A stretch of 64,000 nucleotides of DNA from Candidatus Aminicenantes bacterium. GTDB lineage: Bacteria; Acidobacteriota; Aminicenantia; Aminicenantales; UBA8522. The translations under genes were made by a program, and so were the position numbers. The notes below the pieces were generated by a model. That model ran no database searches. It was not told the DNA's origin and worked only from the letters and a program-made list of their open reading frames with translations. Where the stretch lies: assembly GCA_037444845.1 (NCBI GenBank), contig JBBILQ010000001.1, positions 25,494 to 89,493 on the forward strand, read 5' to 3'. Positions within the stretch are counted from its first letter, which is position 1. Each line of letters begins with the position of its first letter. This document shows positions 2,806-43,081 of this stretch, one piece after another.

Positions 2806-4086
2806 ATGAAAGAGTACAGTCTGGTTGAACTCGAAGAAAAAGAGAAGAAGGAGCTTCAAAAAATTGCAGGCCAAGCCGGCGTGGAAGATGAGGAAATTGA
2901 CGACGCCAGCAAGCACAACCTGATTTTCAGGATTCTTGAGGCCCAGGCCAAAAAGAATGGGCTGCTGTTTTCAGAGGGTGTGTTGGAATGTCTGGAAGAC
3001 GGGTTCGGCTTTCTCCGGGCGCCTGAGTTCAGTTATCTGCCGAGCCAGGACGACATCTACGTTTCTCCTTCGCAGATAAGGAAATTCCAGCTCCGCACGG
3101 GCGACACCATATCGGGCATCGTCCGGCCTCCAAAAAACGGCGAGAAATACTTCGCCCTGATCAAGATCGAAGCCATCAATTTCACTCACCCGGATGTTTT
3201 GCAGGACATGAGACGGAACGTTCACTTTGAGCACCTGACCCCGCTCTATCCCTTCGAGAAGATCAGCCTGGAAGACGGGAATGCCAAGAACATGAACGCC
3301 CGGATCATGGACCTCCTGACTCCGATTGGCAAGGGGCAGAGGGGGCTTATCGTCTCTCCGCCGCGGGCCGGGAAAACAACGCTGCTCAAGACGATCGCCA
3401 AGTCGATCGAGAAAAACCACCCCGAAATCTTCCTCATTGTCCTCCTCGTCGCAGAGCGACCGGAAGAAGTCACGGATTTTCAGAGAAGCGTTAACGGTGA
3501 AGTCGTCGCCTCGACTTTTGATGAGCCCCCGGCAAGAAACGCTCAAGTGGCGAATATCGTCCTCGAAAAAGCCAAGAGGCTGGTGGAAATAAAAAGAGAC
3601 GTTACCATTTTGCTCGACAGCGTGACCAGGTTGGCCAGAGCGCACAACGCCATCATCCCGCCATCGGGCAAGGTATTGTCAGGCGGAATCGACGCTAATG
3701 CGTTGAACAAACCTAAGAAATTCTTCGGTTCAGCCAGGAAAGTCGAGGAAGGGGGAAGCCTGACCATCGTGGCGACTGCCCTCGTTGATACAGGAAGCCG
3801 CATGGATGATGTCATTTTCGAAGAATTTAAGGGGACGGGGAACATGGAGATCAACCTGGACCGCAGGTTGGTGGACAAACGTCTTTTCCCGGCGATTGAC
3901 ATCAACAGGTCAGCCACGAGAAAAGAGGAGTTGCTCATCGAAGAAGCAGACCTCAACCGGATCTGGATTCTGAGGAAAGTCTTGAGCCAGCTCTCTGAAG
4001 TAGAAGCGATGGAGCTTTTGGTCGAAAAACTGGGTAAGACCAAGAAAAACTCGGACTTCCTGAACGCCATGAGCAAAGGGCTGTAA
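2806..4086 (+). CDS. rho: Transcription termination factor Rho
   Basis: 426 aa; N-terminal RNA-binding region (GFGFLR), Walker [11 protein letters not shown], typical Rho length; preceded by ~180 nt leader. Confidence 0.95.
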
Positions 4087-4161
4087 TTTCCCCAGAAACG
4101 AGGGGTGGCGCGGGCAAAGTCCGCGCCATATTTTGATTTTTCCCAAATAAATATTTGCTAG

Positions 4162-4315
4162 CCTGATCTATTCACAAAATGATACGATAAAACGCCCCCT
4201 CCCCTGGCGGGAGGGGATAGAGGGGAGGGGGAATCTTTGAATGATCCCCCTCACCCCGACCCTCTCCCACATGGGGAGAGGGGATTTTTTCCTTTCATTT
4301 CGTGAATAGTCCAGG
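4162..4315. mobile_element. 154-bp MITE-like element, copy 1 (imperfect terminal inverted repeats CCTGATCTATTCAC / GTGAATAGTCCAGG; flanked by CTAG direct repeat)
   Basis: 100% identical to 10112..10265; termini are reverse complements (12/14, extending to ~21 nt with ..AAATGA); CTAG at 4158-4161 and 4316-4319; internal GC-rich hairpins followed by T-runs on both strands; intergenic between convergent rho and parB. Confidence 0.65.
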
Positions 4316-4611
4316 CTAGTTTCTCTGCTATATAAGCTTGACATATTTGTAATCTAGGAATAGAAGCATAAACCGATAGAGGGAGCGGAAGGGTATTTTT
4401 GGGTAGATATCTCAAGAAAACGAACAAGAAAGACCAGAAACCGAAGAAAGAAGAGAAAAAGGAAAATAATATTGCGTCGCATAAGGGTTATTATGTCAAC
4501 TTTAATATTTTTTTACAAAAAGGCTACGCTTAATTCAGACAGAAGATACCATTCTTCTCAGGTTCTAGATTAATGACGCGAGATTCGCCCGCCTGCCTTT
4601 TGGGCGCCGCG

Positions 4612-5448
4612 CTAAGGTTTAGATTTCAATTTAGAAACAATATCTTCAAGAACCTTGATAATTTCTTCTTTGGTGACAGAATATTTCTTGAACTCAATGC
4701 GAAGATGATAATAATCGTTGTGTTGGGGGCTGTAACTAAATACGTAGGGCTTTCCTTTTTTGATTTTTCCTTTAATCTTCTTAGATAAATCGCGCGTATC
4801 TTCGCGGCGAAGCCCTCTTTGTCCGATTTCGTTGATGAGTCTTTCCATGTCTTCTTCTTTGTTTAGCTTTGCTATCTCTATGAGGGTGCTCCGGCTGGTG
4901 ATGTCGAACGACTGGCAAAGAGAGCGGAGATTTTTTGGAATTTTGGCTACGTTGATGATTTCCGTGATTGTTGACCGGGCTTTACCGATTTTTTCGGCAA
5001 GCTGGCCGTGGTTATAGCCATAAATATCGATAAGCGCATTCAAGCCGTCAGCTTCTTCGAACACATCCAGGTCTTTTCTTTGCAGGTTTTCAATAAGGGC
5101 AAGCTCAAGAGCTTCATTATCTTTCACGTTCATCTCAATACAGGGAATTTCGGTGAGGCCGGCATTTTTTGAGGCCACAAAGCGGCGCTCTCCAGCGATG
5201 ATTTCATAGCGGTCGTTCTTTGGACGAACAAGGATAGGTTCGAGGACTCCTTTGGCTCTTACAGAAGCGGTAAGCTCGTCAAGATTTCCCAATTCGTTGC
5301 GGGCCTGTTGAGGGTTGGGGTCAATTTTATTAAGAGAAATCATCCTGATGCGAGGCCCGGAAGCTCGTGAAGAAATAAGGTCGACAAAATGACCATCATG
5401 CCGCATGGCGATTGAATCAGGCAACCCGGAGCGTTTAGTTTTCTGCAC
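4612..5448 (-). CDS. parB: ParB/Spo0J-family chromosome partitioning protein (start codon uncertain; internal Met alternatives at ~5406)
   Basis: ParB N-terminal box LNKIDPNPQQAR, GERRFVASKNAGLTEIPC, HTH region; immediately downstream of parA on same strand. Confidence 0.85.
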   Translation of the reverse strand: MQKTKRSGLPDSIAMRHDGHFVDLISSRASGPRIRMISLNKIDPNPQQARNELGNLDELTASVRAKGVLEPILVRPKNDRYEIIAGERRFVASKNAGLTEIPCIEMNVKDNEALELALIENLQRKDLDVFEEADGLNALIDIYGYNHGQLAEKIGKARSTITEIINVAKIPKNLRSLCQSFDITSRSTLIEIAKLNKEEDMERLINEIGQRGLRREDTRDLSKKIKGKIKKGKPYVFSYSPQHNDYYHLRIEFKKYSVTKEEIIKVLEDIVSKLKSKP

Positions 5449-8067: not shown

Positions 8068-9210
8068 ATGAAAGAAACAAAACTCATTTTTATCATCTTT
8101 ATGTTGATTTCGACAGCATTGCGAGGCGAGAAGGTCATCACGATAGGCCAGGCGGGAACCGAAGGAGAGATCGCTTTCCCCAGGCAGGTGGCAGAAGGGC
8201 CTGACGGCAACATCTATGTCTATGACCAGGCGGATGCCTTGATCAAGGTCTATTCTTCGGCGGGCGATTATCTCCGGAAAATCGGCGGAAAAGGCCAGGG
8301 GCCGGGTGAAATTCAGCGGGCTGAGGGAGTTTCTTTCGGCTTCACGGCCGACGGCAGGCTCTTCTTCACCGAATTCTTCGGCGGACATCCCTGGATTACG
8401 GTGGTCAAGCTCGACGGCGAGCTCGATCGAGTGATTAAGCCTCAGGTCAAGGAATTTTTTGGCATATCCAGGGCAGTCGCGCTCCCGGGAGGGAACTTTC
8501 TGATTGAACTTGTCTTCCTCGGCCAGCCGGAAAAAGAAAAGGATTACTTCTACCATCGCTCTCTCCGCGAAATAGCGCTTCTCGATAGTGAAGGCAGGAT
8601 CCTATCCCGCATCAAGCAGACCAACCACATCACTCGGATTTCCTATGTCCATGATGGGGCCGACTCGCCCATCCCCTACACTCCGATGTTCCTCTGGTGT
8701 CCTTATGATGAGAGCTCCGTCCTTTTCTCGGAGGGGCTTGAGACCAACATCCAGGTGATCGACTACTCGGGGAAACTGGTCCGCAAAATCGAGACTTCTC
8801 TGCCAAAGGCGGAAAAGGTGACCAGCAAAGACTTGGATGAATGGAGAAAACGGCGCCGGGAAATGACCCAGAGCCGCGATCCTGACTGGTGGGCCCGCTT
8901 CGGTAAGGTCATTGAAAAATACAAGAAATCTATCTACCCCTATAAGCCTACTATCTGGGAGATCAATCGGACACCCCGGGGCCGTTTCCTGATCGCCTCA
9001 AGGAGAGAAAGTGATGACGCGCGGGCAAGATACTGGCTCATGGATAAGGATGGAAAACAGCTGCTCAAGGTTGACACATCAGTCTGGATCATGGGGATCT
9101 CGCCAAGTTTTATTTTTTTGGGGCAGGTAGACGAAGACGGCATTCCTTCGATCCGGGCTCTCCGGCGCCAGGGGAAGGAAGAAGAGGATCTTCTCAGGCT
9201 CTGTGACTGA
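8068..9210 (+). CDS. Secreted NHL-repeat-like beta-propeller protein (hypothetical)
   Basis: Signal peptide MKETKLIFIIFMLISTAL; repeats resembling NHL units (GNIYVYDQADALIKVYSSAGDYL..G.GPGEIQRAEGVSF); RBS AAGGTGG before ATG 8068. Confidence 0.5.
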   Translation: MKETKLIFIIFMLISTALRGEKVITIGQAGTEGEIAFPRQVAEGPDGNIYVYDQADALIKVYSSAGDYLRKIGGKGQGPGEIQRAEGVSFGFTADGRLFFTEFFGGHPWITVVKLDGELDRVIKPQVKEFFGISRAVALPGGNFLIELVFLGQPEKEKDYFYHRSLREIALLDSEGRILSRIKQTNHITRISYVHDGADSPIPYTPMFLWCPYDESSVLFSEGLETNIQVIDYSGKLVRKIETSLPKAEKVTSKDLDEWRKRRREMTQSRDPDWWARFGKVIEKYKKSIYPYKPTIWEINRTPRGRFLIASRRESDDARARYWLMDKDGKQLLKVDTSVWIMGISPSFIFLGQVDEDGIPSIRALRRQGKEEEDLLRLCD

Positions 9211-10848
9211 TGCACGAGGCGCCCTTCTGCTCCTTCGTTTCAATAAAATCGACCCCTCCCGGCTTAATCTCTTCCAATGCATAATCTCCGCTATCCTTTT
9301 TCACAACTCTCCAGGACTCATTGAGTTTCAAGATCCAGCCGTCCCCTTTGATTTCTTTTCCTTCAATAATCTGTGGTTCGGATACGGTAACCCGCCGCCA
9401 GTTTTTGTCAATCAACAAGCCTTTTTCCACTTCCAGGTTGCCCCATTTATCAATGATGTGCGCTGTCCTGTAAACGCTTCCGTATTCTTCCAGGGGAAAT
9501 ATCTCCTGCGGGTTAAAGCTAATGTTCATCTTGATCAAGTCTATTTTCAAACTGGGCTTGTCAATGAAAATGCTTTTGTACTCTTTGAGGAGCTGGTTTT
9601 GTTTGTCCTGAAATGCCCTTTCGGCTTTTATCAGCTCCTCGCCATCGTATTTATAGTATCTTCTCTCTGCTTCCGTTTTCAAATCGTCCGGCAACTGGAA
9701 AGAAAGGGCTTTTTCCATGATTTCGCCGAATTCGCTCGTGTTGTTTAAGCTACTTCTCCACTCAACCTTTAACTCATCTAAGAGTATCCCGTAGGCCGGC
9801 CCAGTTTGATAGGCAAATGACCAGTTAAAGGATATCTGCGCCTCTGCATTTTTTATTCGCCTTTCCATCTCTATCATCAGAGCCTCTGGCGGATACCCGC
9901 ATAATTTTGCGCCGGTATATTCTGCCAGTCCTTCGTGCATTTCAAATCTGCTCTCGTTCACGCGGGCAGATTGGAAAATTTTGTGTCTGCAATTCCTGAA
10001 AATCAAAGCATCCTCGATCGCTTCCAGCCTGTCGTGGTCGGCGGAAAGCAGAGCCTTTCTTAAGGCGCGCCATTCAAGCTTTAAATAGATTCTCCCGTCC
10101 AACGTATCCAGCCTGATCTATTCACAAAATGATACGATAAAACGCCCCCTCCCCTGGCGGGAGGGGATAGAGGGGAGGGGGAATCTTTGAATGATCCCCC
10201 TCACCCCGACCCTCTCCCACATGGGGAGAGGGGATTTTTTCCTTTCATTTCGTGAATAGTCCAGGTCAGATGGCTGTTGTCCGTATTCACAGGCGGAAAT
10301 CCGATGCCCTTCTGTATCCGGTGCCAGGATTCGTGCGCTAACAGCCAATTCCTGTCCTGTTTATTGTCCCTGGATAAATGATCCCAGATCACCATGGTCC
10401 ATTTTTCTCCATACAGGTCAGCTGCTGTATTGGCAGGATTAATCTCTTTCGCCAATTCCCCGATGAATACATTTCCCCTTTTTTTGAAAGTATTCAGCAT
10501 GTTTTGCTGATTGGCGACGACGGCTCTGGATGCGGGATCGACAAACAGCACTTTGCCGTAAAGGTTGACACGCCACAGCCTGCCATTGTCTTTTTCTGAT
10601 ATTTCTTTTAGTTCCTCGAAATATCGAGAAGCTAAATCAATATCAATGGATGCTTCCTGGCTTGCTCCGGCCTTCCCGGAAGGGAATGATCCGATACACA
10701 CGATCAGCATGATGAAAAAAGCGACTCGTTTCGGCATTGTCACAACTCCAATCATCATTACGGGTCTTCGCATAATAGTACGGATGAAATATCCAAAAGG
10801 TTTTCGAGAGAGAAAAGCGTGGCCTGATACTCCACTGAGCAGCAGCAA
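9194..10848 (-). pseudogene. Secreted HExxH zinc-metallopeptidase gene split by MITE insertion (N-terminal fragment 10848..10267, C-terminal fragment 10111..9194)
   Basis: N-fragment: signal peptide + LLAHESWHRIQ (HExxH); ORF runs 19 codons into the repeat then stops. C-fragment ORF has no ATG for its first 54 codons (track start is TTG). Removing element 10112..10265 plus one CAG repeat joins ...NSHL|DTLDGRIYLKLEW... in the same frame. C-fragment carries EMHEGLAEY, reminiscent of the M1 NEGFAxY third-ligand motif. Confidence 0.55.
10112..10265. mobile_element. 154-bp MITE-like element, copy 2, inserted within metallopeptidase coding sequence (flanked by CAG/CAG within cCAG...tCAG)
   Basis: Identical over all 154 nt to 4162..4315; same orientation; flanking sequence differs outside the element; 3-bp direct repeat CAG at 10109-10111 and 10267-10269. 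Confidence 0.65.
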
Positions 10849-24419: not shown

Positions 24420-25877
24420 ATGATCAAGCCAAAAAGACCGAAGCTCGAGCTTTTGACCAAGTCTTTTATCCAAAAAATCGTCGATGAGGCCTTTCTTCTT
24501 CTGGGAAGGCACGGGGTCTTTGTGGAAAACGAGGCGGCTCTGACTCTCCTTCGAGAAGGAGGAGCGGAAATAAACGAAACCACAAGACGCGTAAGATTAA
24601 GCGGTGGCCTGATTGAGGAGTGCCTTTCTTCCGCTCCCTCCACCATCACACTTTATGATAGGGCAGGCGAGAAGGAGTTTGTCGTCGGAGGGGATCAGGT
24701 TCATTTTGACCCCGGGTCAGCGGCCGTGACGATCCTCGACCATGCCACCGGGGCAGAAAGGAAGGCAGTGACTGATGACCTTGTCAAATTCTCCCGGTTG
24801 ACCGACTTGCTCACACATTTCCACTTCCAGAGCACGGGGCTTGTGAGCTCGGACGTGCCGGAAGAAATTGCCGATGTCTATCGCCTTTACATTTGCCTTC
24901 AGTATTCGTCCAAGCCCGTGGTCACCGGGACGTTTCGGGTGGAAGGATTCAAACCCATGTTCGACACGCTCGTGGCCATCAGGGGGAGCGAGGCAAACTT
25001 GGCTGAGAAGCCTTTGGCCATTTTCGACGCCTGCCCCTCCCCTCCCCTCAAATGGAGCAACCTCACAGCCCAGAGCCTCGTTGATTGCTGCCGCGCGGGA
25101 ATTCCCTCTGAGCTGATTTCTATGGGCATGACTGGTGCGACTTCGCCAGTGACGATAGCCGGTACGCTGGTCCAGCATGTCGCTGAAAACCTTTCCGGCC
25201 TGGTTATCGCTCAACTGGCCAAACCCGGCGCTCGTGTTATCTTCGGCGGCTCTCCCTCGAGCTTTGACATGCGGCGCGGCACGACACCCATGGGCGCTAT
25301 AGAGACGATGATGATCGATGTGGCCTATGCCCAGATCGGAAAATTCCTGAACTTGCCGACTCATGCGTACATGGGACTGAGCGACTCCAAGGTCAACGAT
25401 TTTCAGGCCGGGTTGGAAACCGGGATAGGCGCTGTGCTGGCTGCCCTTGCCGGCATTAACGTCGTCTCAGGACCCGGGATGCTCAATTTCGAGAGCTCGC
25501 AGAGCCTGGAAAAGCTGGTCATCGATAACGAAACCTGCGGCCTCGCTTATCGGCTTGCCGAGGGCATCTCCCAGCGCGACGAGCCGCTGGCTCTTGAGCT
25601 TTTTGATTCTCTGGGCAAGGAGATGCAGTTCCTGACTCTCCCCCACACGCGAAAATGGTACCGCCTCGAACATACGTTTCCGGCAGTTACCGACCGCGAG
25701 ACTTACGATGCCTGGGTGGCCATGGGCAAGAAAACAATGGCCGACCGTGCCGCTGAACGCGTCGAACAGCTTTTAAGAGAGAATCCGCCAGCCCTCCCCG
25801 ATCCAGCGATCGTCCAGGAGCTTCAGAAGATCATGCTCGTGGAAGCGCGAAAAGCCGGCCTCGAAAGACTCCCCTGA
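24420..25877 (+). CDS. MttB-superfamily (trimethylamine methyltransferase-like) substrate:corrinoid methyltransferase, non-pyrrolysine type
   Basis: 485 aa TIM-barrel-size protein with MttB-family similarity along length; ORF is uninterrupted (no in-frame amber), as in quaternary-amine (glycine betaine/proline betaine/carnitine) MttB homologs. Confidence 0.8.
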   Translation: MIKPKRPKLELLTKSFIQKIVDEAFLLLGRHGVFVENEAALTLLREGGAEINETTRRVRLSGGLIEECLSSAPSTITLYDRAGEKEFVVGGDQVHFDPGSAAVTILDHATGAERKAVTDDLVKFSRLTDLLTHFHFQSTGLVSSDVPEEIADVYRLYICLQYSSKPVVTGTFRVEGFKPMFDTLVAIRGSEANLAEKPLAIFDACPSPPLKWSNLTAQSLVDCCRAGIPSELISMGMTGATSPVTIAGTLVQHVAENLSGLVIAQLAKPGARVIFGGSPSSFDMRRGTTPMGAIETMMIDVAYAQIGKFLNLPTHAYMGLSDSKVNDFQAGLETGIGAVLAALAGINVVSGPGMLNFESSQSLEKLVIDNETCGLAYRLAEGISQRDEPLALELFDSLGKEMQFLTLPHTRKWYRLEHTFPAVTDRETYDAWVAMGKKTMADRAAERVEQLLRENPPALPDPAIVQELQKIMLVEARKAGLERLP

Positions 25878-30948: not shown

Positions 30949-33900
30949 CTAAAGCTTGACCTCTGCCGGCGCCTTGATGGGCTTCTGTCCCGATTCCTCA
31001 AGCGCCCTGTTCAGAGCCGGCAGGTCCTCTCGGATGAGCCTGTTGAGTTTTTCGACCAGGGCATCGACTTTCCTGGATATATCTTCGAGCTGCGCGAGGT
31101 CTGTCTTGGTCGGGGCAGAAGGATGACCGGCAATAGATGTCCCCAAGGTTAGAAGCATCTGGTTCAAGGACCCTCCCCGCAGGACATCTTCACGCGTCCG
31201 CTGCGCCGTGATATCGCCGGGAACAATTGCTTTTTCAACAGGATGGAATTTTTCCTCAAAGGTTTTTAAGGCGATGGCCAACGACTCAGGCTGCTTCTCT
31301 TCCTTCTTGAGGTCCTTCATCAGGCCTTCCGCCTCCCTGCGGATATTCGTGGCTGCTGTTATGGATAATCCCATTTTTTTCGAAAGAATCAACAGCTCAG
31401 CGATGGCTTCGTGCTGTTCTTTTATCTCCTCTGTAGATACCTGAAACCTTGGATCGGCCAGGACAGCGGCCTGAGATTTGAATTTCTGGCCGTCCACGTT
31501 GAGCTCAACCGTGAATTCACCCGGTTCGACGAGCGGCAAGGAGGCAAACCCTATGGCAGGCGGAGTGACTTTGGTCCCATCTTTTGATTTGGGCGCAGTC
31601 TGGAGACTCCAGTATTCTCTCTGGAGGCCCTCCTGGATGGCCAGGTTGAGCTCAAAAACCGTCTCGCCGTCTTTGTTGAAAATGGTTACCTTAGGCTTTT
31701 CCTTGGGCTTAGCCAGAAGATGAGCGGTGATGGCCATCCCATAGGCTGGGTTTTTCGCGGCAAAAACGGGTTTTGTCCAGGATTCCCGGCGCGAGGACAT
31801 GTGATAAGCGAACGTCGGCCGGATGCTAAACATGCGGGCCGGAGCCGAAAGGACTTCTGGGCGCATCTCCTGGAGGAAGGAAATGTCGTCCAGAATCCAT
31901 ATCCCGCGGCCGTGGGTGCCGATAATCAGGTCATTGTCGCGGGGGTGGATGGCAATATCGTGGACGGCCACGGTCGGGAGGTTGTTCTTCAAGGAAAACC
32001 AGGAGGCGCCGCCGTCGAGAGAGGCAAAAACGCCGAACTCGGTGCCGACAAAGAGGAGATTCTTGTTCTTCACATCCTCGCGGATGACGTTGACCCAGCC
32101 GAACGGCAGGTTGCTCTTGATGGATTTCCAGGTTTTTCCGAAGTCCGTCGTCTTGAAGACGTACGTGCCATAATCATCGTGGCGGTGGCCGTCAAAAGCG
32201 GCGTATGCCGTGCCCGCTTCAAAACGCGAAGCCTCTACCCTGGAACACCAGGTTCCGGTAGGGAGTCCCGGGATGCGGCGGACGACATTTTCCCAGGTTT
32301 TGCCGTTGTCCCGGGTAAGTTGGAGGTTGCCGTCGTCCGTGCCGCACCAGATCACGCCCCTTTCTACGGGAGACTCGGAGATGGCCGTGATTGTGCAGTG
32401 GCTTTCCGCGCCCGTGTTATCGAGAGTGATCGGCCCGCCCGAATCTTTCTGCTTGGCCTGGTCATTGGTCGTCAGGTCTGGGCTGATGATCTCCCAGGAG
32501 GATCCCCTGTCTTGTGTCCTGAAAAGGTAATTTCCGCCGGTGTAGACAGTCGCGGAGTCGTGGGGCGAGATGTGGATGGGCGAGTTCCAATTGAACCGGT
32601 AAGGAGGGTCACTTAGTCCTCCGATCGGTTTTATCATTTTACTCTTACCGATCCGCCAGTCGTAGCGGTAGAGGTTGTTGACCTGCCAGTTGCTGTAAAC
32701 TGTGTTCGGGTCATTCGGGTCGGGCTGAGCAAAAAACCCGTCTCCGCCTCCGATGCTCGTCCAGTCGTCGTTGGCGATGCCAGCGCTGTCCGTAGTGGCG
32801 CTCGGGCCGGCCCAGCTGCCGTTGTCCTGAAGCCCGCAGTAGACGTAATACGGTTGCCGCATGTCGTACCCGACCTGGTAGACCTGGGCCAGGTCCATGC
32901 TCTGGACCGGAAGCCAGCTCTTTCCTCCGTCGTAAGAGATATCGATCCCGCCGTCATTGCCCTCGATGAGATGGAGCGGGTTGGAGGGGTTGATCCAGAG
33001 AGCATGGTGGTCCGGGTGGATGCCAAAACCGATGGACCTGAATTTCTGGCCGCCGTCCGTGGAGACGTGAAGCCCGGTTGAGAGCACGTAGACGACCTTG
33101 TCGTTTGTCGGGTCAACGCGGATATGGCTGTAGTAGAACGGCCGCGTGTTGACCCGCCTATACGTCTGGACGTCACACATCCTTTTCCACGTCTCTCCAT
33201 GGTCTTCTGAGCGCCAGATTCCGCCGTCCTTGTGCTCGATGAGAGCATAGACGACCCCGGGAGCGCTCCTGGCCACATCAATTCCAATCCGGCCCATGAT
33301 GCCCTCGGGCAGGTCTTTGGTCAGGTGCTTCCAGGTTTCGCCGCCGTCTGTCGTTTTATAAAGGCCGCTTCCCGGGCCGCCAGAGGAAAAATGATAAGGA
33401 AGCCGGCGGTGTTCGTAGGCGGCCGCATAGAGGATGAGGCTGTCGCCGGGGTCCATGGCCAAGTCGGCAAACCCCGTATCGGCGTTGACGTAAAGGACTT
33501 TTTTCCAGGTTTTGCCGCCGTCGATGGTTTTATAAATCCCCCTCTCTTCGTTCGGCCCCCACAAATGGCCCATGGCCGCGACATAGATTATATTGGGATC
33601 GCCGGGGTTAATGATGATGCGGCGGATATGTCGTGTTTCCTTGAGGCCCATATTCTGCCAGGTTTTGCCGCCGTCCACAGATTTGTAAACGCCATCGCCG
33701 ATGGTGACGCTGTTGCGGCAGGTGGCCTCCCCTGTCCCGACCCAGACGATGTCCGGATGAGACGGCGCGATAGTGACGTCGCCGACAGAGACAGTCGCTT
33801 CCTTATGGAACACAGGGCTCCAGGTGACGCCGCTGTTCTCCGACTTCCAGACGCCGCTCGGGCCGATGGCGGCGTATATGATCCACGGCTTCTCCGCGAC

Positions 33901-34080
33901 GGCGTCGATGTCGACTGTTCGGCCTCCCATCACGGCAGGGCCCAAAGCCCTCCAGGAGAATTTTTCGTAGAGCTTTCCGACCTTGTCTGCGCTCTGAGCC
34001 TGGACGAGCAAAGGGAAGAGCGCAAGAGAAACAAGCGGCCAAAGCCATTTTCCGGATAACCCGGCAGACAATCTGGACAT
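30949..34080 (-). CDS. Secreted BNR/Asp-box-repeat tandem beta-propeller protein (Sortilin-Vps10/GH74-like)
   Basis: Start ATG 34080 (GGAGG RBS), signal peptide; >=10 Asp-box repeats S/T-x-D-x-G-x-T-W (SVDGGKTW, TIDGGKTW, TTDGGETW, SEDHGETW, TRDNGKTW, TTDFGKTW...). Confidence 0.75.
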   Translation of the reverse strand: MSRLSAGLSGKWLWPLVSLALFPLLVQAQSADKVGKLYEKFSWRALGPAVMGGRTVDIDAVAEKPWIIYAAIGPSGVWKSENSGVTWSPVFHKEATVSVGDVTIAPSHPDIVWVGTGEATCRNSVTIGDGVYKSVDGGKTWQNMGLKETRHIRRIIINPGDPNIIYVAAMGHLWGPNEERGIYKTIDGGKTWKKVLYVNADTGFADLAMDPGDSLILYAAAYEHRRLPYHFSSGGPGSGLYKTTDGGETWKHLTKDLPEGIMGRIGIDVARSAPGVVYALIEHKDGGIWRSEDHGETWKRMCDVQTYRRVNTRPFYYSHIRVDPTNDKVVYVLSTGLHVSTDGGQKFRSIGFGIHPDHHALWINPSNPLHLIEGNDGGIDISYDGGKSWLPVQSMDLAQVYQVGYDMRQPYYVYCGLQDNGSWAGPSATTDSAGIANDDWTSIGGGDGFFAQPDPNDPNTVYSNWQVNNLYRYDWRIGKSKMIKPIGGLSDPPYRFNWNSPIHISPHDSATVYTGGNYLFRTQDRGSSWEIISPDLTTNDQAKQKDSGGPITLDNTGAESHCTITAISESPVERGVIWCGTDDGNLQLTRDNGKTWENVVRRIPGLPTGTWCSRVEASRFEAGTAYAAFDGHRHDDYGTYVFKTTDFGKTWKSIKSNLPFGWVNVIREDVKNKNLLFVGTEFGVFASLDGGASWFSLKNNLPTVAVHDIAIHPRDNDLIIGTHGRGIWILDDISFLQEMRPEVLSAPARMFSIRPTFAYHMSSRRESWTKPVFAAKNPAYGMAITAHLLAKPKEKPKVTIFNKDGETVFELNLAIQEGLQREYWSLQTAPKSKDGTKVTPPAIGFASLPLVEPGEFTVELNVDGQKFKSQAAVLADPRFQVSTEEIKEQHEAIAELLILSKKMGLSITAATNIRREAEGLMKDLKKEEKQPESLAIALKTFEEKFHPVEKAIVPGDITAQRTREDVLRGGSLNQMLLTLGTSIAGHPSAPTKTDLAQLEDISRKVDALVEKLNRLIREDLPALNRALEESGQKPIKAPAEVKL

Positions 34081-34192
34081 CTTGCCTCCTTCTTTCTTTA
34101 CATCTTCAAGGAAATTCATTATAAGATACGTCCTTGATAAAATATAGTTTTCCCTCAGCTTAACATGAAGATTTTGCAGGAAGGAGGATGGA

Positions 34193-36244
34193 ATGACGCG
34201 CGGGATGTCGGTTTTTCTTTCTGTTGGCCTCGGCCTTGGCATCGCCTGTGCGGCGGCCTGGGCTGCAGATATTTCTTTTAGCCAGTATCATAAACCCGAA
34301 GAAGTCAACGCCCTGCTCAAGTCCCTGGCTTCACAGAAGCGGCAACTGGCCAGGTTCATCAGCCTGGGTAAATCGAGCGCCGGCACAGAAATCGCAGCGC
34401 TCCGGCTGGCTGCTCAGCCCAAGGGTAGCACAGACCCGGATTCCCGGCCGGCGGTGTTCATCTCCGCCAACCTGGAGGGCATTCACCTGGTCGGAACCGA
34501 AGCCGCCTTGAAGCTGGCCGAAAAGTTGATCAAAGGTTATGGCTCCGATAAGTTGGTCACCGGGCTGTTAGATACAAGAACAATATATGTGGCGCCGCTC
34601 CTCAACCCGGACGCAGCGCAAGCCTATTTCTCTTCGCCACGCTTTGAGAAGGTGACGAACAGCCGGCCCATCGACGACGACCTGGATATGAAGACTGACG
34701 AGGACGGTCCGGATGACCTGAACAACGACGGCCTGATCACCCAGATGCGGGTCAAGGACCCCGAGGGAAAATGGATTGCCGACCCGGCCGAGCCCAGGCT
34801 CATGCGCCTCGCTGACCCGAAAAAGGGGGAGAAAGGTGTCTATACGCTTTACACGGAAGGCCTGGATAATGACAGCGACGGCGAGTTCAATGAGGACCCG
34901 CCGGGCGGAGTCGCCATCAACCGCAATTTCCCTCATGATTTCGAGTACAATACACGGATCGCGGGACTGTGGCCAGTCTCTGAAGAAGAAACGCTGGCCC
35001 TGGTCAGGTTTCTTGTTACGCATCGCCATATCGCTATGGTCCTGAACTTTTCTACTGAGAACACCATCCTTAATCTGCAGCAGACAGGACAGGCCCGGGC
35101 GGGCGCAGACAGAGTCAGAGTCCCTCGCCAGTTTGCTTCCTTCCTCGGCCTCGAACCCGACCAGGAATACACCCTCAAGGAGATTGCCGAAGCAGCAAGA
35201 GCCTCGGGCATGGGAGGCGGCATGGAAATCACCGAAGACATGGTGGCCTCTTTCCTCGGGTTGGGCCCGGCCGTGACCATCGACCGCCAGGACATGCCCT
35301 TTCTCGAGGCGATCCAGAAGGAATATAAGGACGCGCTCAAAGAGGCCAAAGTCGATTATCCAGAAAAAAGGGCTAAGGGCGTGGGCAAGGGCTCTTTTGT
35401 CGCCTACTGCTATTATCAGTACGGCGTTCCTGTCTTCTCTGTCGATTTATGGTCGGTGCCAGAGCCGAAAAAGGAACCGGCCAAGGACGCCCTCACAGAG
35501 GAAAAGTTGAAATCTATGTCCTCCGAAGAGTTCCTGGCGCTCGGAGAGGACAGGATTTCGGCTTTCCTCAAAGAGCAGGGAGCTCCGCCGAATTTCAGCG
35601 CCGAGATGCTCATCAAAATGGTCAAGTCCGGCCAGGTAACGCCGCCGCGGATGGCCGATATGATGGCAAAAATGCCCCGGCGGCCCCAACCAGATGGCGA
35701 TGAGCACCCGGACCTCTACATCCTGAAATGGGCCGACGAAGCCTGGAAAGGCAAGGGCTTTGTGCCCTGGACGCCGTTTAAGCACCCGACCTTAGGAGAA
35801 GTGGAAATTGGCGGGTTTATTCCCCTCCTTAAGATTAATCCTGCGCCCGAAGAGATGGAAAAGACGCTCGCGGTCCATGCTGATTTTTACGTCAGACTGA
35901 TGACAAAACTTCCTGAGCTTCAGGTTCGGGAGGCAAAGGTCGAGGCTCTTAGCCAGGAGCTTTACCAGGTTACGGTCTTCCTGACCAATGAGGGCTGGTT
36001 CCCGACGTCTACTGCCCAGGGCCAGCGGGCCCAAACTGCCTGGCCGATTAGAGTGACTCTGAAAACGGAACCGGGGCAAAGCGTCTTTTCAGGACGACCT
36101 GTCGAGACAATTCCTTTTCTCGGCGGGAGTGGCGGCACCAAAAAAGTAGAATGGACAGTCAGGGGAAAGAAAGGCTCCCGCCTGACCGTTACCGCGGGCT
36201 CGCCGAAGTTAGGCACGGTCACGGCGACGATTATCCTGGAGTAA
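34193..36244 (+). CDS. M14 carboxypeptidase-family paralog with non-canonical zinc motif (ExxH instead of HxxE) - possible pseudo-enzyme
   Basis: Signal peptide; aligns with downstream M14 paralog along length incl. Asp-rich insert (DDDLDMKTDEDGPDDLNNDG); where paralog has NIHGNEIQGAE this protein has NLEGIHLVGTE. Confidence 0.65.
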   Translation: MTRGMSVFLSVGLGLGIACAAAWAADISFSQYHKPEEVNALLKSLASQKRQLARFISLGKSSAGTEIAALRLAAQPKGSTDPDSRPAVFISANLEGIHLVGTEAALKLAEKLIKGYGSDKLVTGLLDTRTIYVAPLLNPDAAQAYFSSPRFEKVTNSRPIDDDLDMKTDEDGPDDLNNDGLITQMRVKDPEGKWIADPAEPRLMRLADPKKGEKGVYTLYTEGLDNDSDGEFNEDPPGGVAINRNFPHDFEYNTRIAGLWPVSEEETLALVRFLVTHRHIAMVLNFSTENTILNLQQTGQARAGADRVRVPRQFASFLGLEPDQEYTLKEIAEAARASGMGGGMEITEDMVASFLGLGPAVTIDRQDMPFLEAIQKEYKDALKEAKVDYPEKRAKGVGKGSFVAYCYYQYGVPVFSVDLWSVPEPKKEPAKDALTEEKLKSMSSEEFLALGEDRISAFLKEQGAPPNFSAEMLIKMVKSGQVTPPRMADMMAKMPRRPQPDGDEHPDLYILKWADEAWKGKGFVPWTPFKHPTLGEVEIGGFIPLLKINPAPEEMEKTLAVHADFYVRLMTKLPELQVREAKVEALSQELYQVTVFLTNEGWFPTSTAQGQRAQTAWPIRVTLKTEPGQSVFSGRPVETIPFLGGSGGTKKVEWTVRGKKGSRLTVTAGSPKLGTVTATIILE

Positions 36245-40571: not shown

Positions 40572-42020
40572 ATGAAAATCGCGATGTTGAGCTCGGAGGT
40601 TGTGCCTTATGCCAAGACCGGCGGTCTGGCGGATGTCACGGGGGCATTACCCAAGTACCTGAGCGAAGCAGGAGCGGAGGTGCGGGTTTTCCTGCCGCTC
40701 TACAGAGAGACGAAAAAAAAGAACCTGCCCCTCGAGAAGGTGGTCGATGGCCTCAAGCTCGAATGGGCCGGAAAAACCGAGCTGTACTCAATTTGGGAAC
40801 ACCGCCAGAATTCCCTCTCTTTTCTCTTTGTCGAGAAGGACGCCTATTTCGACCGGGATTATCTTTATGGAAACACGCAAGGAGATTATCCTGATAACGG
40901 CGAGCGATTCGCCTTTTTCTGCCGGGCGGCGCTCGAGACTCTGAAAGTCCTGGGGTTTCAACCCGATATCCTCCACAGCCACGACTGGCAGGCGGCTATG
41001 ACGCTGGCCTATCATAAGCTTGGATATGCGGATGACACGTTTTTTTCTTCCGCTCGTTCTCTCTTTACCATTCACAACCTGGCCTACCAGGGAATTTTCG
41101 AACGGGAGGTGCTCGGCAGGATCGGACTTCCTGATGCCCTCTTCAATATGGAGGACCTCGAGTTTTATGGCAAAGTAAACTTCCTCAAGGCGGGTGTCTT
41201 ATACTCCACAGCCGTTAGCACGGTCAGCCCCCGTTATAGCCAGGAAATCCAGACGCCCGAGTTCGGGCATCGCTTGGACGGGTTGCTGAGAAAACGCCAC
41301 TACGACCTCTACGGTATCCTGAACGGTGTCGATTATTCCGAATGGAATCCAGCCACCGACAGGTTCATCGCCAGGAATTTTGACGCCGACAGCCTGACCG
41401 GAAAGGAAGAATGCAAGAAAGATCTGCTTCAATCTTTTTCTCTGCCGCCTGAAGCTGAGAAGGAGCCGGTCGTGGGTATGGTGTCGCGTCTGGCGGGCCA
41501 AAAGGGCTTTGACCTTCTCACACAGGCCGTCGAGGAGATTTTCCGAAGCGGAGCCAATCTCATCATCCTGGGGACGGGCGAGGAGGTATACCAGCACGCG
41601 CTCCAGGCGGTCCAGAAGCAGCATCCCCGGCGCTTTGGCCTGAAGATTGCTTTTGATGAGGGTCTGGCTCATAAAGTCTATGCCGGGAGCGATATCTTCC
41701 TCATCCCTTCCCGTTATGAGCCCTGCGGCCTGACCCAGATGTACAGCCTTCGCTACGGGACGGTGCCGGTGGTCCGGGCGACCGGCGGCCTGGAGGACAC
41801 CATCCGGGAATTCAACCCGGAAAAACAGGCCGGCAATGGGTTCAAGTTTGTTGAGTACGAGAAGACCGCCCTCGTCAACGCTGTCCGGAGGGCTTTGGCT
41901 GTTTACCAGGATAAGGAAAAATGGCAGACTCTCATGAAGAACGCCATGGCATGCGATTTTTCCTGGGAGCGGTCAGCCCGCGAGTATATCCGCCTTTACA
42001 AACGCCTTTTATCACCCTGA
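40572..42020 (+). CDS. glgA: Glycogen (starch) synthase, ADP-glucose type
   Basis: N-terminal E-x7-KTGGLADV motif (SSEVVPYAKTGGLADV), GT5 architecture, 482 aa. Confidence 0.9.
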   Translation: MKIAMLSSEVVPYAKTGGLADVTGALPKYLSEAGAEVRVFLPLYRETKKKNLPLEKVVDGLKLEWAGKTELYSIWEHRQNSLSFLFVEKDAYFDRDYLYGNTQGDYPDNGERFAFFCRAALETLKVLGFQPDILHSHDWQAAMTLAYHKLGYADDTFFSSARSLFTIHNLAYQGIFEREVLGRIGLPDALFNMEDLEFYGKVNFLKAGVLYSTAVSTVSPRYSQEIQTPEFGHRLDGLLRKRHYDLYGILNGVDYSEWNPATDRFIARNFDADSLTGKEECKKDLLQSFSLPPEAEKEPVVGMVSRLAGQKGFDLLTQAVEEIFRSGANLIILGTGEEVYQHALQAVQKQHPRRFGLKIAFDEGLAHKVYAGSDIFLIPSRYEPCGLTQMYSLRYGTVPVVRATGGLEDTIREFNPEKQAGNGFKFVEYEKTALVNAVRRALAVYQDKEKWQTLMKNAMACDFSWERSAREYIRLYKRLLSP

Positions 42021-42055
42021 AGGCATCTAACCTGTCATTTTGCGAATAATCCGGG

Positions 42056-43081
42056 CTAACTTGAGCTTCGCATGAAACCGGCTGCGGTCTCTGGCGGCAC
42101 GGGGTTGATGTAAAAACCCGTTCCCCACTCGAACCCCGCCACCCGTGTAAGAACAGGGATAATCTCGAGGTGCCAGTGGAAGCTCTCTCTCAGGTTGGCC
42201 CAACCTTCGTGAGGCAAATTGGGATTGGGCGCCTGGTGGATGTAAAAATTAAAAGGGGGGTCGGAGAGGATGACCTTGAGTTTCCCCAGGGTCGTCTTTA
42301 TCGTCCTGGCCAGCCAGAGGGATTCGACTTTGGTCAGGCACGTGTACCAGGCGGAGTGCCGCAGCGGATAGATTCGCATTTCAAAGGGGAAGCGTGGGGC
42401 AAAAGGAGCCATGACGCAAAAATGTTCGTTGCGCAGGATGAGCCGCTCGCCCTCGCTCGTCTCATCGCGGATGATACGGCAGATGATGCATTCGCCGTGC
42501 TGCCGATGAAGCCTCTCGCAACCATAAAGCTCCTCGTTGACCTTCTTGGGGATGATGGGAGTGGCCACAATCTGGGAATGCGGATGGCTGAGGGATGCGC
42601 CGGCCTCCCGTCCTTTGTTCTTGAAAACATGGACATACTTGTACTGGAACTCCTTCTCGATACTGAGCACGCGCTTCTTATAGGTCTCCAGCACTTGTTG
42701 GATGTGGTAAAGGGGCAGGTCGGGAAGCTCCCTGTCGTGGTCGGGAGTTTCGATGACGACCTCGTGCACGCCCACGCCGTCCATCCAGCGGAATATCCCG
42801 TCCTCATGCTGGACAGGGGGCATACCCCTTGTCAGAGCCGGGAATTTGTTGGGAACGACCCGAACCAGCCACCCCGGTTTATTAGGCCGCGTTCCGTTTT
42901 TCCGCAGCGCGTAGACCTCGCGGGGGGTTTTGGATTCGTTACCCTCGCAGAAAGGGCAAAAGCCTGCCGGTTCCTTTTTTTTCTCCGTCGGAGCGGGCCT
43001 GAAGTCATCCGGCCTTTTGCCCCTTTCGGCGGCGATGATGACCCAGCGGCCGCTGATGATATCCTTCCGTAACTGGGACAT
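42056..43081 (-). CDS. GalT-like HIT-family hexose-1-phosphate nucleotidyltransferase (galactose-1-P uridylyltransferase or ADP-glucose phosphorylase-type)
   Basis: Zinc-knuckle CPFCEGNE and active-site HPHSQ motif; last gene of the alpha-glucan operon. Confidence 0.8.
   Translation of the reverse strand: MSQLRKDIISGRWVIIAAERGKRPDDFRPAPTEKKKEPAGFCPFCEGNESKTPREVYALRKNGTRPNKPGWLVRVVPNKFPALTRGMPPVQHEDGIFRWMDGVGVHEVVIETPDHDRELPDLPLYHIQQVLETYKKRVLSIEKEFQYKYVHVFKNKGREAGASLSHPHSQIVATPIIPKKVNEELYGCERLHRQHGECIICRIIRDETSEGERLILRNEHFCVMAPFAPRFPFEMRIYPLRHSAWYTCLTKVESLWLARTIKTTLGKLKVILSDPPFNFYIHQAPNPNLPHEGWANLRESFHWHLEIIPVLTRVAGFEWGTGFYINPVPPETAAGFMRSSS

Follow-up and report, generated by a model that had tools for sequence, protein, structure and literature searches.

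A miniature inverted-repeat transposable element with a BoxC/PIT/TMECO core interrupts a conserved gene in an Aminicenantes bacterium

Short repeats that lack coding capacity are easily found in bacterial DNA, and the question raised by any one of them is whether it has moved, by what means, and with what consequence for the genes around it. This question is posed by a 154-bp sequence present in two identical copies in the window analysed here, a stretch of 64,000 nucleotides (positions 25,494 to 89,493 of contig JBBILQ010000001.1) from a metagenome-assembled genome (MAG) of a Candidatus Aminicenantes bacterium. A first-pass annotation, made from the letters alone, described the repeat as a novel and recently mobile miniature inverted-repeat transposable element (MITE), and suggested that it might serve as a bidirectional transcription terminator. 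Here, we compare the two copies with each other, with orthologous loci and with related sequences elsewhere. One copy is shown to interrupt a conserved gene whose orthologues have the corresponding site empty, and the core of the element is recognised as a motif with a long history in Escherichia coli.

Direct reading and a repeat finder (family D1) give a block of 156 nucleotides shared at 100% identity, at 4160-4315 and 10110-10265. It consists of the 154-bp element itself – copy 1 at 4162-4315 and copy 2 at 10112-10265 – and, at the left, the dinucleotide AG, which is part of the flanking tetranucleotide. Beyond the block the surroundings of the two copies are unrelated (26% and 16% identity over 50 nucleotides, 27% and 20% over 100), so the repeat is not part of a larger segmental duplication, the alternative that the first-pass annotation had set against mobility. 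Copy 1 is flanked by CTAG at 4158-4161, repeated at 4316-4319, which is either a putative 4-bp target-site duplication or a TA duplicated within CTAG; copy 2 is flanked by CCAG at 10108-10111 and TCAG at 10266-10269.

The ends are imperfect terminal inverted repeats (TIRs) borne on AT-rich arms. In copy 1 the left arm comprises 33 nucleotides (4162-4194, plus strand), the outer 21 being CCTGATCTATTCACAAAATGA, and the right arm 32 nucleotides (4284-4315, minus strand), the outer 21 reading CCTGGACTATTCACGAAATGA on the minus strand. CCTGATCTATTCACAAAATGA and the reverse complement CCTGGACTATTCACGAAATGA agree at 18 of 21 positions, and the arms are complementary at 25 of 33; in short form the ends read CCTGRWCTATTCAC and CCTGRWCTATTCACRAAATGA. 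A degenerate search of the window with the 21-mer returns only the four ends of the two copies and one further site with three mismatches at 42035-42055, with 0.00 matches expected from shuffled sequences. The identity of the copies, their unrelated surroundings, the imperfect inverted repeats and the short flanking direct repeats were all correctly described at first pass.

Proof of insertion comes from copy 2, which is abutted by two minus-strand open reading frames (ORFs). The first (10201-10848, with a called product of 178 amino acids at 10201-10737, P0140) enters the element, reads 21 element codons (TWTIHEMKGKNPLSPCGRGSG) and stops at 10201; it is genuine gene sequence from 10267 upward, and represents the 5′ fragment of an interrupted gene. 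The second (9194-10102, 302 amino acids, P0003), together with nine further nucleotides, forms the 3′ fragment (9194-10111), and is in frame with the first after removal of the insert. Removing 10112-10269 (158 nucleotides, i.e. 154 + 4) fuses ORF 10848..10267 to ORF 10102..9194 in frame, giving ...DNSHL-DT-LDGRIYLK... across the junction. The fused protein of 461 amino acids has 734 homologues, the best of which are intact proteins of 435-467 amino acids aligned over 95% of its length (P0001 at 77% and P0002 at 76%). In the alignment with these homologues the junction is free of gaps and an invariant H156-L157-D158 is restored, which follows an invariant HExxH by 18 residues.

How the site looks when empty is seen in the two closest orthologues, whose DNA reads CAT-CTGG-AC/AT, which is CCAG, present once, on the plus strand of the window. 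The filled site retains this CCAG (CTGG on the gene strand) to the left of copy 2 and carries TCAG to the right, so that CAG is duplicated perfectly and the fourth base, at 10266, is mismatched, T standing in place of C. Comparison of filled and empty sites proves that copy 2 was inserted precisely, duplicating a short target, and, together with the restored frame, establishes it as a true insertion of a non-autonomous TIR element, a MITE. Neither the split gene nor the empty orthologous sites had been remarked upon in the first-pass annotation.

Because the length of the insert, 158 nucleotides, is not divisible by three and the reading frame runs into a stop codon, the gene at copy 2 is inactivated. 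Apart from the insert the split gene carries no lesion, and this, together with the 100% identity of the two copies, dates the insertion as recent, which agrees with the mobility first proposed from their identity. The ORFs 9194-10102 and 10201-10737 should accordingly be annotated as one pseudogene. We also considered an in-frame 'peptide insertion' like the RPEs of Rickettsia, and rejected it on the length of the insert and on the stop at 10201.

The family to which the interrupted gene belongs (window 9194-10737, minus strand) comprises proteins of about 440 amino acids with a signal-peptide-like N-terminus, the invariant HExxH and many other invariant residues. Its homologues, at least 734 in number, occur in Acidobacteriota, Verrucomicrobiota, Zixibacteria and metagenomes. 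The product matches no Pfam domain; from these sequence features it is probably a secreted metallopeptidase.

That the repeat is not mobile at all – but a segmental duplication, a gene-conversion tract or an artefact of assembly – is an explanation that deserves consideration in view of the source being a MAG and only two full copies having been seen. We judge it extremely improbable. The flanks are unrelated immediately past the 156 nucleotides, and diverged copies of the element occur in independent metagenomes. Both sides of each copy also belong together: copy 2 lies between the halves of one gene, and copy 1 between rho and parB, which are neighbours in a related contig (L023) too. Database records place both P0140, the chimeric product, and P0003, the 3′ fragment, on two contigs of unequal length (132 and 137 kb). 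Mis-assembly is therefore excluded.

The independent copies came from a scan of JGI metagenomes with the TIR, which yielded 13 matches: ten chance matches and three real copies of the MITE, on contigs L009, L017 and L021. The L009 and L021 copies both break off within the element at the end of the contig; that on L017 is 94% identical over 122 nucleotides and lacks the left arm. The gene neighbouring the L017 copy is 87% identical to Aminicenantales proteins. Sequence similarity thus shows the host of L017 to be an Aminicenantes bacterium, and in that case at least the MITE family appears to stay within the lineage.

The L017 copy, with its left arm missing, is located exactly at a break in synteny that appears when L017 (1661-1956) is compared with contig L035 (6194-9716). 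L035 and its relatives up to L040, which are 83-85% identical to L017 in nucleotide sequence, have no MITE and possess three additional genes spanning about 3.5 kb; these encode a 141-amino-acid protein, an aminotransferase and an alpha-L-fucosidase, and lie between a gltB-like gene and a gene for an M50 peptidase. The break could reflect an element-adjacent deletion, which would fit the link with rearrangements that has been reported for the motif in the core of the element, described below.

Within the window, the further TIR-like site at 42035-42055 (minus strand) is a solitary 21-mer, CCCGGATTATTCGCAAAATGA, with three mismatches and TTAG at its flank, for which we estimate a chance occurrence of about 0.01 per window. 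It fills most of the 35-nucleotide spacer between a starch-synthase-like gene (40572-42020, plus strand) and a convergent GalT-like gene (42056-43081, minus strand), whose stop codon is provided by the TTAG flank. This solo end may be what is left of a related element. A second family from the repeat finder (D2), five diverged direct repeats of 37 nucleotides at 32123-33689, has no relation to the MITE: it lies in the ORF of a 1097-amino-acid BNR/sortilin-repeat protein (30949-34242), whose blades it encodes.

What, then, does the element consist of? Its layout is a 33-nucleotide AT-rich arm, a unit A, a 14-nucleotide spacer, a unit B and a 32-nucleotide AT-rich arm, and on either strand the whole folds as a single long hairpin (-99 and -107 kcal/mol, z = -8.9 and -10.5). 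At 154 bp it has no coding capacity, since six-frame translation gives only short or interrupted frames. Small size without coding potential, TIRs and a target duplication seen by comparing filled and empty sites are features by which MITEs are recognised, and the element has all three; as to dispersal, two identical copies and a solo end are seen in about 80 kb of source contig.

The identity of the GC-rich core was reached by an indirect route. The concatenated six-frame peptides of the element, compared with 5.8 billion proteins, matched only the chimeric product of the window itself and, weakly, one other protein, and on the contig of the latter (L022) BLAST showed element positions 86-121 recurring as inverted pairs. 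When the element was compared with all complete E. coli genomes, positions 35-121 matched at about 79% identity over 87 nucleotides. Of 5426 genomes, 5261 have such matches, the median number of places being eight; they include an array between flgG and flgH and, in strain 13P460A, the phnD-phnE spacer. The core is also matched on plasmids of Azospirillum, Klebsiella, Enterobacter, Sphingomonas, Mitsuaria and Synechocystis. The sequence so distributed is the BoxC/PIT/TMECO motif, which was first described in the 1990s, has been reported from E. coli and more than 260 other genomes (PMC4666352), and follows the pattern CCCTCNCCC-N3-6-GGGNGAGGG-N3-GGGNGAGGG (Holder et al. 2015, PMC4666352).

On the minus strand both copies match this pattern exactly (4248-4282 and 10198-10232), and the same regular expression matches the units of E. 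coli and L022. The hairpin part of the pattern occurs in the window in the two copies only, with 0 expected by chance, and some 150 kb of related Aminicenantes DNA contain no instance of the motif. The exact match forms unit B (4246-4283, minus strand), in which 4248-4282 reads CCCTCTCCC-CATGT-GGGAGAGGG-TCG-GGGTGAGGG. Unit A (4195-4231, plus strand) is a variant, CCCCCTCCCC-TGGC-GGGAGGGG-ATA-GAGGGGAGGGGG, in which a C-stem, a G-stem and a mirror G-stem can be read from the sequence; it gives no match to the strict published expression within three substitutions. Between the units lies the 14-nucleotide spacer AATCTTTGAATGAT (4232-4245), which forms the loop of the whole-element hairpin. The doublets of E. 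coli, Azospirillum, L022 and the element align with one common layout. By this pattern and alignment the 89-nucleotide core is an inverted doublet of the BoxC/PIT/TMECO motif, which is predicted to form an intrastrand triplex; circular dichroism and nuclear magnetic resonance measurements on a triplex oligonucleotide have been published (PMC4666352).

The census of the motif counted 3610 copies in 262 proteobacterial genomes, among which inverted pairs of type A and type B are frequent (PMC4666352). The element resembles these in its exact unit-B pattern and in its inverted doublet, arranged as in the type A + type B pairs of E. coli and about 79% identical over 87 nucleotides. It differs in being bounded by TIRs, in being demonstrably inserted into a gene, in having a T tract after each hairpin, and in its host, an Aminicenantes bacterium as opposed to the Proteobacteria of the census (PMC4666352). 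The AT-rich arms are absent from the other doublets inspected (E. coli, Azospirillum, Sphingomonas, Mitsuaria and L022), and the units of these have no recognised flanking duplication. The description of the element as novel therefore stands in part: its arms find no significant match in plasmids, Rfam or 185,579 species-representative genomes, but its GC-rich core is a known doublet. Across the window Rfam gives 0 matches at the gathering threshold, and generic hairpin (miRNA-precursor) matches fall far below it.

Some other occurrences of the motif may be recorded here. At one and the same intergenic site, phnD-phnE, E. coli 13P460A has a BoxC doublet (L031, 587-710) and K-12 has REP/BIME-type palindromes (L033), so that two different repeat families alternate at a single locus. 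Doublets also occur inside annotated coding sequence: that at 4998-5100 of L022 lies near the 5′ end of an ORF for an N-acetylmuramoyl-L-alanine amidase (P0143) and is open in frame, and that at about 170-290 of L044 lies within a dihydrolipoamide acetyltransferase gene on a Sphingomonas plasmid. These resemble in-frame insertions of palindromic elements. Single TMECO-like units, 91% identical to unit B, are carried by many plasmids of 54-60 kb from Klebsiella, Enterobacter, Citrobacter and E. coli, several of them conjugative; the 2015 census reported no association of the motif with plasmids (PMC4666352). A 33-bp hairpin insertion, AACCCTCTCCCCAAAGGGGAGAGGGGACGATTA, sets apart a published pair of Enterobacter strains (PMC6048247).

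How might such an element move? We consider it highly probable that it is a MITE moved in trans by a DDE transposase of IS5-like or IS630-like type. It would then be a 154-bp non-autonomous DNA transposon whose imperfect TIR arms of about 33 nucleotides, AT-rich, enclose the 89-nucleotide BoxC/PIT/TMECO core. A transposase encoded elsewhere would bind the arms, cut out or copy the element, and insert it at a short target, leaving that target duplicated, the targets seen being CTAG, TTAG, TTAA and the off-consensus CCAG. The transposase, its family and any ongoing activity are what we infer here.

The flanking sequences bear on the family of the enzyme. Read outward from the conserved right end, they are CTAG at copy 1, CTGA at copy 2, TTAA on L017, TTAG on L009, CTAG on L021 and TTAG at the solo end 42035. 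IS5 uses and duplicates the target 5′-YTAR-3′ (PMC5009759), which fits five of the six flanks, the exception being copy 2 (CCAG/TCAG). IS630 inserts at the TA of CTAG and duplicates the TA (PMC2170065); with the element extended by a base at either end, to R-CCTG...CAGG-Y, its flanks are TA in five of six cases and CA at copy 2. For ISY100, insertion at other dinucleotides is known to happen at low frequency (PMC2170065). The flanks fit a 4-bp, IS5-like YTAR duplication and an IS630/Tc1-mariner-like TA duplication in NTAN/CTAG alike, and duplications of 4, 3 and 2 bp are not separable because CTAG is its own reverse complement and every scheme has to allow copy 2 one mismatch.

A different agent is proposed if the element is regarded as a hairpin repeat like a REPIN or BIME: a BoxC doublet with an extended stem, moved as single-stranded hairpin DNA by a RAYT/IS200-IS605-type HUH enzyme or by replication- or repair-linked hairpin insertion, in which the 'TIRs' are the outer stem and the tetranucleotides reflect target preference. 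The folding of the entire element into one long hairpin is what this would predict, and the same inverted-doublet architecture is found without TIR arms in the doublets of E. coli, Azospirillum and L022. Moreover, a transposase has never been linked to BoxC doublets (PMC4666352), and no partner insertion sequence (IS) was found in scans of genomes, metagenomes and IMG/VR. The flanks speak against it: CAG is present on both sides of copy 2 and once in the empty site, which is a duplication of a kind not made by HUH-type insertion, and YTAR/NTAN, the target used by DDE families, accounts for five of the six flanks. Were the right tetranucleotide carried by the element, the two copies, alike everywhere else, would have to disagree in a pair of neighbouring end bases (CT versus TC). 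No RAYT-like or Y1/HUH transposase is found among the ORFs of the window. Transposition as a REPIN-like hairpin is thus improbable, and IS200/IS605-type insertion without duplication is rejected by the duplication at copy 2.

Several results weigh against transposition in trans by a DDE enzyme. The TIR scan of species-representative genomes (near-exact 21-mers in 185,579 genomes, a set without the source MAG) gave three chance matches only, all in coding DNA; two fall in genes of Nitrospiraceae MAGs that are orthologous to each other, and one in a Bacteroidetes MAG. Scans for near-exact 21-mers found no full-length IS with matching ends in the JGI metagenomes and, in IMG/VR, one chance match (on the contig of L019) and no autonomous partner. 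BLAST of each 35-nucleotide arm against plasmids returned nothing better than E = 1. The copy 2 duplication is imperfect (CCAG versus TCAG), with a target off-consensus for both candidate families, and the empty site of copy 1 is not recoverable, the rho-parB spacer of L023 being too diverged and those of L024-L027 containing an extra gene. Finally, the roughly 80 kb of source contig hold only two full copies and one solo end.

Closer to the element, no transposase is found among the long ORFs of the window, all of which were scanned, or in the gene tables for 7.2 kb (L001) and 8.7 kb (L030) beyond it, which confirms and extends what had been noted for the window itself; these outer segments hold no further copy of the element. 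A relaxed search for the TIR (up to four mismatches, 355 kb in all) gave no inverted pairs able to bound an IS. The search proposed at first pass, for a transposase with matching ends, has covered species-representative genomes (without the source MAG), JGI metagenomes and IMG/VR at the level of near-exact 21-mers, and plasmids by BLAST of the arms, and none was found.

Compared with known elements, the closest parallels are the bacterial MITEs mobilised by IS630/Tc1-mariner transposases, RUP of Streptococcus pneumoniae and the Correia/NEMIS elements of Neisseria among them, which are likewise 100-160 bp in length, non-coding and able to fold as whole-element hairpins. RUP and Correia/NEMIS share with the element imperfect TIRs (about 20-26 nucleotides), locations both between and within genes, and the ability to carry functional motifs. 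They also use TA-containing targets, and IS630 prefers TA in CTAG (PMC2170065; PMC2229807). The element departs from them in that its arms have no similarity in the annotated collections searched, copy 2 lies in CCAG (CA rather than TA), the copy number seen is very low (in about 80 kb), and its core is of BoxC/TMECO type, which those MITEs lack.

The IS5 family offers a second parallel, and here the ends differ: those of IS5, GGAAGGTGCGAATAAG, are unrelated to the element's CCTGGACTATTCAC. Five of six tetranucleotides (CTAG twice, TTAG twice and TTAA) fit the IS5 target YTAR (PMC5009759), and the net insert at copy 2 is 154 + 4 nucleotides; in contrast, the copy 2 target CCAG/CTGG departs from YTAR, its duplicate is mismatched, and no IS5-family transposase was found nearby. 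REP doublets, REPINs and BIMEs (mobilised by RAYT, TnpA-REP) are also inverted doublets of a short GC-rich palindrome; they too fold into a long hairpin, lie mostly between genes and do not move autonomously. Unlike the element they have no DDE-type TIR arms and no target duplication, and the window contains no RAYT gene.

Does the element act where it sits? Copy 1 occupies the spacer between two convergent genes, rho (2806-4086, plus strand) and parB (4612-5448, minus strand), in a neighbourhood that also includes genes for Lon (199-2628) and ParA (assigned by Pfam). The Rho protein is encoded on contig CAZJPZ010000001.1 (132 kb) of MAG GCA_964548295.1, and its cluster at 90% bears the names Candidatus Aminicenantes and Aminicenantales. 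Each strand of the element has one site that a consensus scan recognises as terminator-like, with a GC-rich 9-bp hairpin of about -19 kcal/mol, as judged on pattern only. On the plus strand the hairpin CCCTCTCCCACATGGGGAGAGGG, that of unit B, is followed by GATTTTTTCC; on the minus strand the hairpin TCCCCTCCCGCCAGGGGAGGGGG, that of unit A, is followed by CGTTTTATCG. The T tracts come from the arms, the right arm supplying the T6 tract after the plus-strand hairpin, and are thus a property of the element and not of BoxC as such; the right end is conserved in L009, L017 and L021. The interior, in which terminators were read at first pass, is a doublet of the BoxC/PIT/TMECO motif, units of which are reported to have no promoter or terminator activity in E. 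coli (PMC4666352).

One could go further and regard the element as primarily a bidirectional intrinsic terminator or insulator, useful to the host between convergent genes, with its mobility incidental. The paired hairpins and T tracts just described are in keeping with this, as is the location of copy 1, the L017 copy and the solo end 42035 just downstream of genes. The consensus scan also finds no other minus-strand terminator-like site between parB and the element, which could possibly end parB transcripts. Several features argue otherwise. The rho gene has a native intrinsic terminator of its own (4105-4139, plus strand), an 11-bp GC-rich stem followed by ATTTTGATTT, at -21 kcal/mol; the hairpin (4105-4129) and its T tract lie 33 nucleotides upstream of the element and outside it, and form the stronger site. 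Copy 2 is inside a gene, which it destroys and where a terminator would be harmful. The minus-strand T tract is weak (TTTTAT), and in a full-length transcript the long whole-element hairpin would compete with the local ones.

The usefulness of a bidirectional terminator at copy 1, as first suggested, is accordingly weakened by the native rho terminator, by the reported inactivity of PIT units in E. coli and by the position of copy 2. That the element terminates transcription at all, which would be compatible with its mobility, is in our estimation possible but rather doubtful. If it does, it may stop transcription both ways, with a polar effect at copy 2 and an insulating one between parB and rho at copy 1.

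Two further observations concern the rho-parB spacer. A 34-nucleotide box, aatattgcgtcgcataagggttattatgtcaactt, at 4468-4501 downstream of the parB stop codon, is 93-94% conserved in L023-L027, where the remaining spacer is unalignable; it overlaps a minus-strand promoter-like site at 4518-4490, which is oriented towards the MITE, and has no Rfam match. A Logan contig (L002, from SRR11582151), encoding an identical Rho protein, ends at its positions 3754-3791 inside the native rho terminator hairpin, 38 nucleotides past the rho stop codon and about 38 nucleotides short of the start of copy 1 in the window.

As a MITE, the element is ordinary biology: the kind is well known in bacteria, and it is the arms that are new. 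No MITE described for Aminicenantes was found in a full-text literature search, and the element provides a cleanly proven case of recent transposition in this uncultured lineage, in which a conserved HExxH gene has been split and the orthologous sites are empty. As far as the evidence goes, the combination of a BoxC/TMECO doublet, TIRs, target duplication and demonstrated insertion is undescribed. The apposition of motif hairpins to arm-borne T tracts would also make it a compact candidate for a bidirectional terminator.

For the BoxC/PIT/TMECO family, the element physically ties the motif to a mobile element bounded by TIRs and target duplication, and so offers a concrete and testable route of dispersal. 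The motif is reported as widespread, as associated with genome instability, as never found with transposons, plasmids or transposase remnants, and as dispersed by means still unexplained (PMC4666352); the literature searched contains no later paper linking it to mobility. We suggest, as a speculation that is unlikely on present showing, that BoxC/TMECO doublets can travel as cargo of TIR-bounded MITEs, in which case the Aminicenantes element would be an intact vehicle seen just after insertion, and the naked doublets of E. coli, Azospirillum and others would be decayed remains of vehicles of this sort, or would have been seeded from them by horizontal transfer. If this were true, the identity of about 79% across the 87-nucleotide core, spacer ends included, would be due to shared ancestry and not to convergence on a triplex-forming sequence.

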